From NCBI GenBank assembly GCA_963767925.1, contig CAVYGB010000010.1, positions 416,001 to 480,000 of the forward strand: a DNA stretch of 64,000 nucleotides. Direction: 5' to 3'. A program made the position numbers and the translations under genes. Below, piece by piece: positions 45,389-51,097 of the stretch (the first letter of the stretch is position 1; each line of letters begins with the position of its first letter). The stretch is from an uncultured delta proteobacterium (GTDB lineage Bacteria > Myxococcota_A > Polyangia > Fen-1088). The notes under the pieces are model-generated. The model made no database searches. It was given only the letters and a program-made list of their open reading frames with translations, and had not been told where the DNA came from.

Positions 45389-47341
45389 AGGTCGGTGGCA
45401 GAGGCCCTGGCCGACGTGCCGGGGCTGTACGTGCTGGACGACCACCTGCAGCCGGCTCTCTCGGTCCGGGGGGTCGACGGCGGGCTGCGGGCCAGCACCC
45501 GACTGGTCAAGGTCATGATCAACGGCGTGCCGGTGCACTTCCGGCCCGACCTGAGCGCCTTCATCGGCCCCGAATACATCCCCATGCCGGCGGTGGAGCG
45601 CATCGAGGTGGTGCTGGGACCCCTCTCCGCGCTCTATGGGGCCAACGCCTTCATCGCCACGGTCAACGTCATCACCATCATGCCGAGGCGATCGTCGGGG
45701 ACGCTCGCGCTGCACGCCAACCAGGTGGAGGGACACCTGGGCGGCGGCCTCTCGGGCGTGGCCAGCGCCATCGGCGACGACCTCGGGGCCACGCTGGGGT
45801 TCTCCTTCGAGCGCAGCGATCGCTCGGGGCTGGCGCCATCCCGCACCTTCGACGGACAGCGGGCCGAGCCCGCGCGCTACGACGCCCTGCTGGCCGGCCG
45901 CAGCCGGCAGGACACGGCCAGCCCCCTCAGCCTGTTTCTGCGGGCCTGGGCCGGTCACCCCGACAGCGACAGGGGCCAGCTCACGCTGCAGGCGGGCCTG
46001 CAGCGGCTGGACCGAGGGGCCGAGTTCCAGGTCAACTCCGCCCTCACCGGCCAGAGCCGGGTGGCGCTCGACAACCTCTGGTCGCACCTCGGCTACCAGC
46101 GGCGCTTCTCCCAGCGCGACGAGCTGACGCTCGACCTGGGCTTCTCCGGCGGAGGGCCTCGCGAGCGGAGCCGGCTCTACCTGTTCAACAACGACGGAGC
46201 CCACTACCAGCCGCGCTTCGGCTACCGGGCCCTGTCCGGGGGGGCCGCCTTCACCAGCAAGCTGGCCGGCGAGCGGCTGACCTTGCGGGCGGCGGCCGAC
46301 GGGGAGGCCGACTGGGAAGACGTCCTCTTTTACCGGCAGACCTTCCTCCGGCAGCTCGGGCAACGCCGGGCCGGCGACCGCCTCGACCTGATCGGGGCCA
46401 GCGACCCCCGGCGCCGGCTGGTGAGCGAGCTGGGCCTGTCGATCCAGGCCCGCAGCAAGCCAGCCCCCGAGGCCCTGCCGGGGCTGGGCCTCAACGCCAA
46501 CCTGCGGGTGGACCACATGCGCTACGGCGACACGACCTTCCCCCTGCAGCCGAGCTGGCGCCTGGGGGCGGTCTACCGCTGGAGCGACGCGGTCGTGACA
46601 AAGCTCGTCGGCGGGCGAGCCTTCCAGACCCCTTCGCCGGTTCTGATGTTCGCCAAGGGCGGTTTCGGCGTCGGGAACAACGTGGTGGGAAACGCCGACC
46701 TGCAGGCCATCGACCTGGCCCGCCCGCTGCGCCCGCAGACGGTGACCGGGGCGGAGGCGGCCCTCAACCTGCGGCCCACGCCCACCAGCAACATCGACCT
46801 CAGCGTGTACCAGCAGACGCTGGACGATGCCATCACCTTCGCCCCCGCGGGCACCGACTTCGTGGCCCAGAACGAGACCAGCCGCCAGTCGGTGGGGCTG
46901 AGCGCCGCTGCCGACCTCCGCCACGGGCGCTGGCTGGCGGCGGGCAGCTTCGCCGCCACCTTTCGTTTCGTCGGCGGGCGCATCGGACGGCAGGCGCTCG
47001 AGCTGTTCCCCAAGTACACAGGGGCGCTCGAGCTGGGGATGGACCTGCCAGAGGCCTACCTGCGCATCGACGGCCACCTCCGCTGGGCGGGCGAGCGGGG
47101 GGCGTCCTCCAGCAACGTGCTCCGCAACAACCTCGTCCCCTACACCCTCCCCGCCTACACCCTCGTCGATCTCACCCTGCGCAGCACCGACCTCGCCTGG
47201 CCCACCCCGGCCGCCCGCCTCGGCCTCCTGTTCTCGGTGCGGAACCTGTTCGACCGACGCTACAGCGAGCCGGGCTTCGCCGGCCTCGACGTGCCCAGCC
47301 TGGGCCGCAGCTACCTGCTGACCCTTCAGCAGGCGCTCTGA
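45389..47341 (+). pseudogene. TonB-dependent receptor lacking its N-terminus
   Basis: Begins mid-plug (RSVAEALADVPG), ERIEVVLGPLSALYGANAF...VNVIT, C-terminal VRNLFD...GRSYLLTL; no signal peptide. Confidence 0.8.
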
Positions 47342-47404
47342 CAGCCGCTGCGCGCCAAGGGTGTCGTCGCCCACGGCCTGGAGATGTGAGCGCGCGTTCA
47401 CACT

Positions 47405-47803
47405 TCAAGGCTCGGAGCGGCCCTTGCCTTCGCGGTCCTTTTGATAGTGGCGGGCGAGGTCGAACGGGGGCAGCCAGGCCTCGCGCCGGATGACCCAGAG
47501 CTCGTAGGTCGGCCGGAACTGGCTGGGCGCATCGAGGCTGCCGAGATTGACCTCGATCTCGTCGCCGCTGCGCCCGAACAGCGAAGAGCCGCAAGCGGGA
47601 CAGAAGTGCCGGTTCCGATATTCCGCCGTCGCGCCGCTGATCGTGACCGCATCGACCGGGAAGATCGCGGAGGCGTGGAACAAAGCACCGTGATGCTTGC
47701 GGCAATCGAGGCAATGGCAGATGCCCACCCGATACGGCGCGCCGGAGAGGGCGAGGCGAACCGCGCCGCACAGGCAACCTCCAGCAAGATTCGTGTCGCT
47801 CAT
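47405..47803 (-). CDS. GFA (glutathione-dependent formaldehyde-activating) family protein
   Basis: GGCLCGAV, CHCLDCRK, FCPACGS zinc motifs. Confidence 0.92.
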   Translation of the reverse strand: MSDTNLAGGCLCGAVRLALSGAPYRVGICHCLDCRKHHGALFHASAIFPVDAVTISGATAEYRNRHFCPACGSSLFGRSGDEIEVNLGSLDAPSQFRPTYELWVIRREAWLPPFDLARHYQKDREGKGRSEP

Positions 47804-47833
47804 GGTTCCCCCGATGAATCTGGTCCCCTGGGA

Positions 47834-47997
47834 CCAGTGCACCGCAGTCGAAATAGCGTCAAGGATCCCCCGACAAGCCTGCGGCCCCGCGAGGCGCGAC
47901 GACGACGAATATCCGGCATATTCCGAGGAGGAGCAACGAAGCGGTGGCGCAGGATCGTCGGCGCAGCCTTGACGATATTTCGACTGCGGTGCACTAG
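47834..47997 (+). mobile_element. 164-bp fold-back (MITE-like) element 1
   Basis: 57-bp arms 47834-47890 and 47941-47997 (48/57 complementary by hand count), ends CCAG/CTAG, 50-nt core. Confidence 0.7.
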
Positions 47998-48158
47998 TCC
48001 CCTGGAACGGTGATTTCTTGCATATCTCGCCGGTCCTCTTCGTCCCTGGCTGCGTTGCTCGTCGGTTAAATACGCCCGGTATTCGCCCTCCTCGCGCCTT
48101 GCCAGGAACGAAGATGCCTCGCCGACATATGCAAGCCTTCACCGTTCCAGGGGACTAG
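47994..48158 (-). mobile_element. 165-bp fold-back (MITE-like) element 2
   Basis: Arms 47994-48050 and 48101-48158, outer 20 bp perfectly complementary, CTAG at both ends; core homologous to element 1 in the opposite orientation. Confidence 0.7.
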
Positions 48159-48217
48159 CAAGCGGACCGCCTTCGTGAAAAATGTCCTCGTCAAGATGCG
48201 CACCCACCCGGGATGAG

Positions 48218-49570
48218 CTACCCCCGCAGGGGCAGCGTCAGGATCGCGCCGCCGATGCGGTCTTGCCAGAAGGCGCGTTCGTCGGGGCGGTGGGTGACCA
48301 TCAGGACGGTGCTCCTCTGCTGGGTGCACAGCGACTCGACCAGGTCGAGGACGCGGTGGCGGTTGTCGGCGTCGAGCCCCGAGGTCGGCTCGTCCAGGGC
48401 GACCAGCGGGGGGACCTTGATGGCGGCGCGCGCGATGAGCACCAGGCGTTGCTGGCCGAAAGACAGCTCGCGGAAGGCGGCGCCGGGCGCCAGGTCGAGC
48501 TCGAGCCAGGCCAGCCAGGCGCGCGCCCGGGCCCGGTCGGTGGGGGTGGGCGGCTGGTAGACGCCGATGCTGTCGTAAAGTCCGCTCAGCAGCACCTCTT
48601 CGACGGTGCCCCCGACCCGGTAGTCGCGGTGCAAGCGGGTGGAGACGAGGCCGACGTTCTTCTTGATGTCCCAGACCGTCTCGCCGCTGCCCCGCCGCCA
48701 GCCAAATAGGTGCAAGTCGTTGCTGTACCCCTGCGGGTGGTCGCCGGTGATCATCTCCAGCAAGGTCGACTTGCCCGAGCCGTTGGGCCCTTCGATCAAC
48801 GTGTGTTGCCCGGCCGAGACGCTGAAATCGAGCCCGTCGAGGACCACCTGTTCACCGTAGGCCACGTGCCCTGCGGCCAGCCGCACCAGCGGCACGCCGG
48901 GAGCGAGCGGCTCGTACCAGCTCCCGAGATGCACGGGCGGCGGCGTTCGGGGCGGCGGACCCTGCGAGGCGCGGGCAAGAAGCGCCTCCGGTGTGCCGTG
49001 AAAGATCAGCCGCCGCTCGGCGACGACCGCCACCGCCTGCAGCGCTCCCGCCGCGAACGGCAGGTCCCGGGCGCTGAAGGTGCCGACCACCAGGACGGGC
49101 AGCCGCTCCGCCACCTGCCCGATGGCCTGGGCCAGCTCCCCATGAGCCGCCCGGTCGAGACCGTCGAACGGGTCGTCGAGGATCAGCAGGGAGGGGGCGC
49201 GCAGCACGGCCTCCAGCAGCAAGACCTTGCGCGCCTCCCCGGTGGAGAGCTGGCGGTAGCGTCGCTGCCACAGCGGCTCGAGTCGAAAGGCCAGGAAGAG
49301 CGGATGGCGCCGCCCCGGCTCGCCCAGCAGGTCGCCCACGGTGCTGCTGGTGTCGACCCCCTGATTGAAGTTGCTCTCGTCCGCCGCGAGCTGGGCTTCG
49401 TAGAAGGCCTGCTGGGATTCGGCCGAGAGCAGCCAGGATCCCGCCACGCGCGCCCCGAGCGCGCGCGCAGCGGTCGACTTACCCGACCCGTTGGGGCCGG
49501 TGAGCAGGGTCAGCCCGGGCCCCGCGAGCGTGCCCTGCAGCCGGGAGAGCCGGTCATCGGGGTCACCCAC
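48218..49570 (-). CDS. modF: ModF-like tandem ABC ATPase
   Basis: Two GPNGSGKS Walker A motifs, LSTGEARK, ITGDHPQGYSNDLHLFGWRRGSGETVWDIKKNVG, LSFGQQR; start uncertain. Confidence 0.82.
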   Translation of the reverse strand: MGDPDDRLSRLQGTLAGPGLTLLTGPNGSGKSTAARALGARVAGSWLLSAESQQAFYEAQLAADESNFNQGVDTSSTVGDLLGEPGRRHPLFLAFRLEPLWQRRYRQLSTGEARKVLLLEAVLRAPSLLILDDPFDGLDRAAHGELAQAIGQVAERLPVLVVGTFSARDLPFAAGALQAVAVVAERRLIFHGTPEALLARASQGPPPRTPPPVHLGSWYEPLAPGVPLVRLAAGHVAYGEQVVLDGLDFSVSAGQHTLIEGPNGSGKSTLLEMITGDHPQGYSNDLHLFGWRRGSGETVWDIKKNVGLVSTRLHRDYRVGGTVEEVLLSGLYDSIGVYQPPTPTDRARARAWLAWLELDLAPGAAFRELSFGQQRLVLIARAAIKVPPLVALDEPTSGLDADNRHRVLDLVESLCTQQRSTVLMVTHRPDERAFWQDRIGGAILTLPLRG

Positions 49571-49608
49571 GGCGAACGATCTCTCCTCGAAGGCGGCGCC
49601 GAGCCGGC

Positions 49609-51097
49609 TCAGCCGCCGACGGAGATCTGCTTCATCGCCGTCATGTAGCCGCGCAAGGTGGCGCCGATCTTCTCGACCGGGTGGCCCTCGACGGCCTGGT
49701 TGACGGCCAGCAGCCGGCGGTTGTCGACCTGCTGGACGCCGGGGGCGAAGGGCTTGCCGATCACCTCGGCCTGCTGCTTGCTCATGAACTCCCTCAGCAG
49801 CGGGACCGCGGCGTGGCTGTACAGGTAGCAGCCATATTCGGCGGTGTCGCTGATGACCTTGTTCATCTCGTACAGCTTCTTGCGCGAGATCAGGTTCGCG
49901 ATGAGCGGCGTCTCGTGCAGGGACTCGTAGTAGGCCGACTCGGGCTTCATGCCCACCTCGACCATGCACTCGAAGGCCAGCTCGACGCCGGCCTTGACCA
50001 TGGCGACCATCAACACGGCGTTGTCGTAGTACTCCTGCTCGCTGATCTTGGCCGGGCCAGCCGCGGTCCGCTCGAAGGCGGTGTCGTTGGTGGCCGCGCG
50101 CCAGCCGAGCAGGTTCGGATCGCCGGCGTCCCAGTCCTTCATCATCGTGGTGCTGAAGGAGCCGGTGATGATGTCGTCCTGGTGCTTCTCGAAGAGCGGA
50201 CGCAGGATGCCCCGCAGCTCCTCGGCCAGCTCGAAGGCCTTGATCTTGGCCGGGTTGCTCAGGCGGTCCATCATCAGCGTGATGCCGCCCTGCTTGAGCG
50301 ACTCGGTGATGGTCTCCCAGCCGTACTGGACCAGCTTGCTGGCGTAGCCGGCGTCGATGCCCAGCGCCACCATGCGGTCGAAGCACAGGATCGACCCGGT
50401 CTGCAGCATGCCGCACAGGATGGTCTGCTCGCCCATCAGGTCGCTCTTCACCTCGGCGATGAAGCTCGACTCGAGCACACCGGCCCGGTCGGCGCCGGTC
50501 CCCGCCGCGTAGGCCTTGGCGATCTCCAGGCCGTCGCCGTTCGGATCGTTCTCCCGGTGCACGGCGATCAGGGTGGGCACGCCGAAGCCCCGCTTGTACT
50601 CCTCGCGCACCTCGGTGCCGGGGCACTTGGGCGCCACCATCACCACGGTCAGGTCCTTGCGGATCTGCTGACCCTCCTCGACGATGTTGAAGCCGTGGCT
50701 GTAGGCCAGGCAGGCGCCCTTCTTCATCAGCGGCATCACCTTCGACACGACGTCGGCGTGCTGCTTGTCGGGGGCCAGGTTACAGACCAGGTCGGCGGTG
50801 GGGATGAGCTGCTCGTAGGTGCCCACCTTGAAGCCGTTGTTGCTGGCGTTCTGTGAAGCTCACTCGCTTCTGCTCGATGGCGTCCGCCCGCAGCGCATAG
50901 CTGACGTCCAGGCCCGAGTCGCGCATGTTGAGCCCCTGGTTCAGCCCCTGGGCGCCGCAACCGACGATGACGACCTTCTTGCCCCGCAGCTTCTCGACGC
51001 CGTTGCTGAACTCGCCGCGGTCCATGAAGCGGCAGCGGCCGAGCTGATCCAGCTTCTGCGCCATGTTGAGGGTGTTGAAGTAGTTCTGTCGGGCCAT
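49609..51097 (-). CDS. ilvC: Ketol-acid reductoisomerase, long (class II) form, with a +1 frameshift
   Basis: [60 protein letters not shown]; removing one base at about 50854 restores [16 protein letters not shown]. Confidence 0.93.

Follow-up and report, generated by a model that had tools for sequence, protein, structure and literature searches.

A covarying, strand-specific tandem G.A fold at the apex of probable IS630-type miniature hairpin elements

Within the stretch of DNA analysed (64,000 nucleotides, in the following the window), two copies of a 50-nt module were identified which both form the tip of a mobile hairpin of approximately 165 nt, and selection very probably maintains a strand-specific fold of this module, here termed the core. 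The element carrying the core is, with good confidence, a MITE of the IS630/Tc1-mariner kind; it is non-coding, as its loop varies in length and TAG occurs in this loop. The complete reading suggested here, i.e., that the core is the apex of an ~165-nt IS630-type MITE and that its fold acts in single-stranded DNA, is tentative. An earlier note on this DNA compared the two cores but missed that they are tips of such elements and that they derive from different subfamilies.

The cores are located in a gap of 414 nt (47804-48217) between two minus-strand genes, whereby this gap is made up almost wholly of two abutting imperfect palindromes, E1 and E2, which represent two different subfamilies of one element placed end to end, with one CTAG (47994-47997) common to both. 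The features of the locus, in window coordinates, are:

47405-47803, minus strand: gene for a GFA-family protein of 132 aa, one border of the gap
47820-47835, directly left of E1: remnant of 16 nt which resembles both E2-type termini collapsed together (87% match to the E2 terminus)
47834-47997, folding (purine-rich) strand plus: element copy E1, 164 nt, a full-length imperfect palindrome with arms 82% complementary, flanked on the left by CCAG (a degenerate CTAG) and on the right by CTAG
47891-47940, plus strand: core 1, the apical 50-nt module of E1, recognized from its sequence, covariation and GA conservation
47994-48158, purine-rich strand minus: element copy E2, 165 nt, with CTAG at each end and inverted repeats
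48051-48100, minus strand: core 2, the apical 50-nt module of E2, recognized by the same tests as core 1
48218-50626, minus strand: gene for an ABC-type ATPase of 802 aa, the other border of the gap

A similar remnant with an E2-type end adjoins another full copy (L012:1490-1504), and these collapsed ends may be leftovers of internal deletion or of excision.

Both core strings given by the earlier note are present exactly in the window, core 1 at 47891-47940 on the plus strand and core 2 as the reverse complement of 48051-48100. Indexing by hand reproduced the listed changes between them, namely C-G to G-C at pairs 10/40 and 13/37, T-A to C-G at pair 22/28 and G-C to G-T at pair 17/33, and GA was found opposite GA at 8-9/41-42 and 11-12/38-39 in both cores, as had been described. 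The suggestion drawn from these two sequences, that selection acts on a single-strand fold with tandem G.A pairs, is borne out over many independent lineages by covariation at positions left free, by coordinated replacement of G.A pairs, by the predominant G.T at 17/33 and by purine-purine mismatches which reside on the same strand of the arms. The architecture of the core comprises an A/T-rich apical stem, closed in most cases by a G.T pair, and two to three tandem G.A/A.G pairs which are separated from each other by covarying C-G/G-C pairs.

When positions 10, 13, 37 and 40 were left free (S) in a degenerate pattern, 116 listed matches were obtained in public genomes, among which pairs 10/40 and 13/37 are both complementary in 111, with all four combinations seen, while pair 22/28 is complementary in 115. 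A second pattern, in which positions 8-17 and 33-42 were wholly free, gave 124 metagenome matches corresponding to 101 distinct cores. In these, pair 10/40 is occupied by CG (56), GC (32), AT (7) or TA (3), pair 13/37 by GC (50) or CG (38), pair 14/36 by CG (34), GC (31), TG (8), CA (8) or TA (6) and pair 17/33 by G.T (65) or G-C (25). With the apex left free, the apical stem was likewise found to covary, with five different stem versions and loops of 4-6 bases. In an alignment of 43 subfamily representatives the covariation holds: paired cells amount to 91.8%, as compared to 66.4% upon shuffling and 32-43% with slid partners, the covariation score is 0.642 versus 0.186 in shuffles, with none of 500 shuffles reaching it, and 28 of 36 pairs change on both sides, covariation being also detected by RNAalifold. 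In the outer stem all 16 of 16 pairs change on both sides and 90.9% of the cells pair. Pairing of the core is hence far above chance, whereby the figures are to be read considering that the collecting patterns fix other parts of the core and that copies within one genome are not independent.

Where the pattern left them free, positions 8-9, 11-12, 38-39 and 41-42 have GA as their consensus in every lineage seen. These positions, called invariant on the basis of the two window cores, do not vary freely: all four GA dinucleotides are intact in 78 of the 101 distinct metagenome cores and in 50 of the 55 cores of the window's own genome, and across six other genomes approximately 16 of 134 rows (counted by eye) are changed at any of the eight positions. 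A third tandem G.A locates to 15-16/34-35 in most lineages and to 14-15/35-36 in the E1 type of the window. In seven distinct metagenome cores and in G389, a tandem G.A is replaced by two Watson-Crick pairs with both sides changed together, which is expected if the bases face each other in a helix:

8-9/41-42: GG/CC (L197, L294), GC/GC (L284), GA/TC (L301)
11-12/38-39: AC/GT (L236, L261, L258)
G389: CG/CG in place of a tandem G.A

As regards a kink-turn, no three-base bulge beside the G.A pairs was seen in the predicted folds, which contain symmetric 2x2 loops instead.

These data bear on three further explanations of the core. The first is that the fold is under no selection at all, with pairing as a by-product of MITE origin by inverted duplication and with the window cores agreeing by chance. 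The palindromic nature of the arms could, within any one subfamily, stem from their origin, and the copies within a genome are recent and not independent; however, inverted duplication gives GA opposite TC, whereas all lineages have asymmetric GA/GA as their consensus, pairs within this asymmetric core flip independently with all four S combinations seen, and neither the shuffle nor the slide controls reproduce the pairing, which makes this explanation hardly credible. The second is that the core, as double-stranded DNA, is bound by a protein of the host or by a transposase, e.g., as a bending site joining the ends, comparable to IHF in Correia elements. In line with this, the core sequence is partly conserved across phyla, with all 43 representatives having the same bases immediately 5' of position 8 and the same six bases following position 43 (in part prescribed by the search patterns), and its A/T-rich centre lies in a setting of 62-71% G+C. 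A duplex site is nonetheless improbable, as the apical stem and pairs 10/40, 13/37 and 14/36 change in a complementary way, as the joint change of G.A/A.G to Watson-Crick pairs on both sides indicates intramolecular pairing and not a fixed recognition sequence, and as the loop is free to vary, with 31 different loops in the 116 listed matches. The third is that the three-base periodicity of the core (GAS repeats) reflects the frame of a short acidic peptide, one frame indeed reading as runs of Asp and Glu codons, but the distance between the anchors varies from 43 to 46 nt and the loop from 4 to 6 bases, a common variant has an in-frame TAG in the loop, and half of the copies are antisense to the neighbouring gene, so that this idea has next to no probability. 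Duplex protein site, duplication artefact and peptide frame are each contradicted by the covariation data.

The maintained fold is specific for the purine-rich strand also outside the core. In 32 subfamily representatives the arm mismatches on this strand are G.A in 132 cases versus C.T in 12, G.G in 77 versus C.C in 27, A.A in 36 versus T.T in 10 and G.T in 86 versus A.C in 61, and the inner arms of most subfamilies possess an asymmetric motif in which two conserved stretches enclose a bulged A, a conserved G.T and a G.A. With RNA parameters, the predicted stability is higher for the purine strand in 41 of 43 representatives (mean difference 14.2 kcal/mol), and with DNA parameters in 42 of 43 (6.8 kcal/mol). 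At pair 14/36 the T.G and C.A intermediates are equally frequent (8 and 8 of the 101 metagenome cores), and given this pair the wobble evidence for one strand is not uniform.

The window's own genome (G000; 9.34 Mb in 13 contigs, 71% G+C, 83.8% complete) was found by BLAST to contain 71 places that match the gap, corresponding to approximately 70 copies. At least four subfamilies are present, whose arms are unrelated in sequence yet always complementary and whose core is identical in kind. E1 is represented by about 20 near-full copies with 91-96% identity and E2 by about 38 copies, four of which are 100% identical. Copies are bounded by CTAG, and tandem copies as well as E1-E2 composites like that of the window have a single common CTAG. 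None of the 55 cores lies inside a called gene, and in 28 of 55 the element begins exactly at the stop codon of a gene, as the TAG of the flanking CTAG (rough gene calls); in other genomes 49 of 95 copies directly follow a stop codon. Diversity within the genome, in changes per site per copy, is 0.012-0.013 for the core versus 0.026-0.034 for the arms, which is only suggestive of a lower core diversity, as much of the arm variation defines sub-lineages.

Two side observations were made on these copies. In E2-type copies, core position 24 (window 48076), the second base in the apical loop of 5 nt, takes all four letters and departs from the majority in 19 of 35 copies that are otherwise 95-100% identical; either mutation is concentrated here at the hairpin tip, or this base marks out several source lineages. 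Moreover, two further short repeats, a G-rich motif of ~22 nt and a motif of ~25 nt, recur beside the hairpin elements (examples are the flanks at C3:27367, C10:556272 and C2:853501 of G000, and at C8:319417, C8:3139571, C2:213511 and C2:102280), and hence intergenic repeats appear to cluster here as in BIME-like mosaics.

IS630 inserts at TA within CTAG. As regards the flanks of the hairpin elements, TA is found at both flanks in 83 of 146 elements (termini at least 10/12 complementary), in 72 of them in CTAG context, whereas direct repeats of T-N-A type only were found in 6, flanks fitting both TA and T-N-A in 5 and flanks fitting neither under this strict test in 52 of the 146. The TA duplication is here read from the flanks only; at the locus tried in relatives a clean empty site was not recovered, as synteny breaks there. 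IS630-family insertion sequences of the carrier genomes have CTAG ends followed by similar bases. One of these, in L189, is 1165 bp long with a DDE_3 ORF of 376 aa and CTAG ends, and its left end matches the end of the MITE copy L051 at 21 of 22 bases, whereby the MAG of L051 is labelled Myxococcota, a different phylum label than that of L189. In the window's genome (83.8% complete) neither an autonomous partner with the ends of the window's two subfamilies nor a match to DDE_3 or DDE_Tnp_4 was found. The single DDE_Tnp_1 gene of G032 was considered as a partner and rejected, as it lacks MITE-like ends.

The window's genome does contain an IS5-family (DUF4096) insertion sequence of 1607 bp with inverted ends of ~22 nt and 3-bp T-W-A duplications in C-TWA-G context, copies of which are located at:

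C2:283912-285517
C10:1775105-1776711
C8:3083470-3085084
C8:2215923-2217532

The T-N-A minority of the hairpin elements has the same footprint and target style as this insertion sequence, and therefore the same core may ride on elements moved by more than one kind of transposase. The IS5-type (DUF4096) family is missing from G032 and G033.

Also in the window's genome, outside the window, eleven paralogous ORFs of ~230 aa were observed which match Y1_Tnp (IS200/RAYT-like) weakly, at 27-38 bits, and whose upstream DNA is conserved (C10:1014562-1015254, C10:706280-706999, C2:814905-815597 and eight more); they constitute a multi-copy HUH element of their own. A movement of the hairpins as single-stranded DNA by such a Y1 HUH transposase (RAYT/TnpA), in the manner of REPIN or IS200/IS605 elements, would agree with the strand specificity of the hairpin, with the presence of these eleven ORFs and with the position of two of them within 1 kb of an element. 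This explanation is very improbable: the distance to the nearest copy exceeds 2 kb for 9 of the 11 ORFs and 19 kb for 6 of these 9, G031, G032 and G033 bear 27, 92 and 5 cores, respectively, without a Y1_Tnp match, the flanks have the appearance of TA or T-N-A duplications, and the ends of one subfamily are those of IS630. A RAYT/IS200-type mechanism was consequently rejected on account of the core-bearing genomes that are devoid of a Y1 match and of the distance between ORFs and copies.

For the IS630-type MITE reading, the following course is suggested. The element would insert at TA, mostly within CTAG and very often at the TAG/TAA of a stop codon. The fold would serve the element itself and not the neighbouring host genes, an assumption based on the lack of a strand bias towards genes or skew and of promoter- or terminator-like sites. 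The core would act as a stable nucleus from which the purine-rich strand could zip up into a foldback that reaches the TA ends. Foldback from a single strand is the form proposed for MITE amplification, and the surplus of mismatches containing G agrees with the ranking of mismatches by stability in DNA. Single-stranded DNA rather than RNA is favoured as the acting form, with somewhat less than even confidence, on the grounds that the pairing extends precisely to the ends of the transposon and that mismatches with G prevail. Against this stands that IS630-type transposases are known to act on double-stranded DNA and are not known to pass through a single-stranded stage.

A role of the same fold as RNA is nearly as likely as one in single-stranded DNA. 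In this case core and inner arms (~100 nt in most subfamilies) may act upon transcription of the purine-rich strand, e.g., as a protein-binding or transcript-protecting hairpin, which is regarded as possible, with some doubt. Tandem sheared G.A and G.U are classic RNA features, non-Watson-Crick features (the bulged A, G.T and G.A of the inner arms) are conserved beyond the core in most subfamilies, and the roughly one half of copies which directly follow a stop codon would be co-transcribed. In addition, ERIC and Correia elements act at the RNA level: RNA-level effects are reported for ERIC, and Correia is described as a MITE with terminal inverted repeats and an IHF site whose hairpin is processed by RNase III in transcripts (PMC10969869). 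Set against this, the purine strand has no significant orientation preference in the transcript of the abutting gene, with 10 sense to 18 antisense cores in the window's genome and 24 to 31 in other genomes. A scan of the window copies gave 0 promoter-like and 0 terminator-like sites, and conservation is lacking in the arms, which is where a promoter would be expected. Furthermore, G.A and G.G mismatches in the arms rival G.T, whereas structured RNAs usually have mostly G.U. Rfam release 15 gave no real match for window positions 47000-49000 (E up to 10) or for 15 loci from other phyla (E up to 1), as the long hairpin matched plant microRNA precursors only below threshold and the remaining hits were due to chance.

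Orientation was also without bias relative to GC skew in the window's genome (32:23) and relative to the skew-defined replichores of G032 (19:25 and 25:23, read by eye), which counts against the favoured reading. In the chromosome of G032 (via L043), the strands of the 92 cores were observed to be clustered by position, with 20 minus to 4 plus at 1.17-2.25 Mb followed by 15 plus to 4 minus at 2.28-3.2 Mb (by eye), and neither the origin nor the terminus indicated by sampled GC skew falls at this switch.

MITEs are normally recognized by their ends, which are needed by the transposase, while their insides drift. The family reported here is the reverse of this: ends and arms change by subfamily, and the 50-nt centre (~100 nt in most) is nearly constant from Acidobacteriota to Gammaproteobacteria. 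Since this constancy goes along with compensatory changes and with non-canonical pairs of one strand, the fold must be read by some factor that very different bacteria share. Should this reading take place in single-stranded DNA, the fold would give access to the way in which short palindromic elements multiply; should it take place in RNA, the fold would represent an abundant structured RNA missing from the catalogues. In either case, about half of the copies start at the TAG/TAA of a gene, which matters for the annotation of gene ends and 3' regions in carrier genomes.

Searches of the literature on MITEs, CTAG elements and ERIC/IS630 found no description of this family, and searches of paper text with core strings of 11-13 nt returned only unrelated papers among the matches listed. 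The closest described systems are the ERIC and Correia elements. ERIC has a conserved central inverted repeat. Like the present family, ERIC/IRU of Enterobacteria and Vibrio is a dispersed imperfect palindrome of similar size which is intergenic, often at gene 3' ends, and differs widely in copy number between relatives, and a MITE census lists it (MITEEc1) as IS630-related (PMC11602168). In contrast to ERIC, the present family is found in several phyla, combines its core with numerous unrelated classes of arms and ends, and has this core built on tandem G.A pairs of one strand. The Correia elements (CREE/NEMIS) of Neisseria resemble it as MITEs with terminal inverted repeats and a functional central feature; there, however, the ends and a duplex protein site are conserved within one genus, whereas the present family has variable ends and a covarying fold as its centre. 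REP/REPIN sequences with their RAYT are likewise dispersed hairpin repeats which are strand-specific as single-stranded DNA, but REPs are 20-40 nt long, have a tagged end and need a RAYT gene, whereas three element-bearing genomes (5-92 copies) lack a Y1 match. Single-strand origins of the ssoA type in rolling-circle plasmids, and ssi signals, are imperfect hairpins of 130-200 nt which function on one strand only and are conserved mainly near the apex. The element is similar to them as a long imperfect one-strand hairpin that is conserved near the apex and variable elsewhere, but those are single-copy plasmid functions with known conserved loop motifs, whereas the loop of the element is free to vary.

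A further explanation, which is thought possible though rather unlikely, sees core and inner arms as the selected unit, i.e., as an undescribed structured nucleic-acid module (e.g., a protein-recruiting RNA or an sso-like signal) with the tandem G.A helix as recognition surface. Hairpin elements whose ends are unrelated, and which leave two kinds of footprint (TA and T-N-A), would have captured or carried such a module, and it would thereby have spread over at least four phyla.

The distribution of the element was followed with the degenerate core pattern, which in a set with one genome per species gave at least 114 loci. The labels of the core-bearing MAGs comprise, among the matches listed, Vicinamibacterales and other Acidobacteriota, Polyangia and Sandaracinaceae (Myxococcota), Candidatus Rariloculaceae and other Gammaproteobacteria, and Desulfobacterota, and nearly all matches reside in hairpins of ~165 nt (164-168 nt in 70 and 157-173 nt in 115 of 146 elements). 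The copies nearest to the window's subfamilies, L100 and L052, are found in MAGs labelled Polyangia. Matches were obtained in 40 of 81 genomes of the taxonomic family to which the window belongs, compared to 4 of 401 in an even sample of its phylum, and thus the distribution is patchy, as expected of a mobile element. Within one genus, 54 pattern matches in the window's genome face 0 in G001, an assembly of 870 contigs with 86% completeness in which repeats may be unassembled. BLAST with a canonical copy gave no match in plasmids, and the strict core pattern gave 0 matches in viral contigs. Finally, a metagenome contig (L232:1-444) was observed to consist of four head-to-tail units of 102 nt, each with a divergent core followed by a second hairpin and with A-T pairs where the first G.A pairs normally stand; this array may be a tandem, differently arranged relative of the element.
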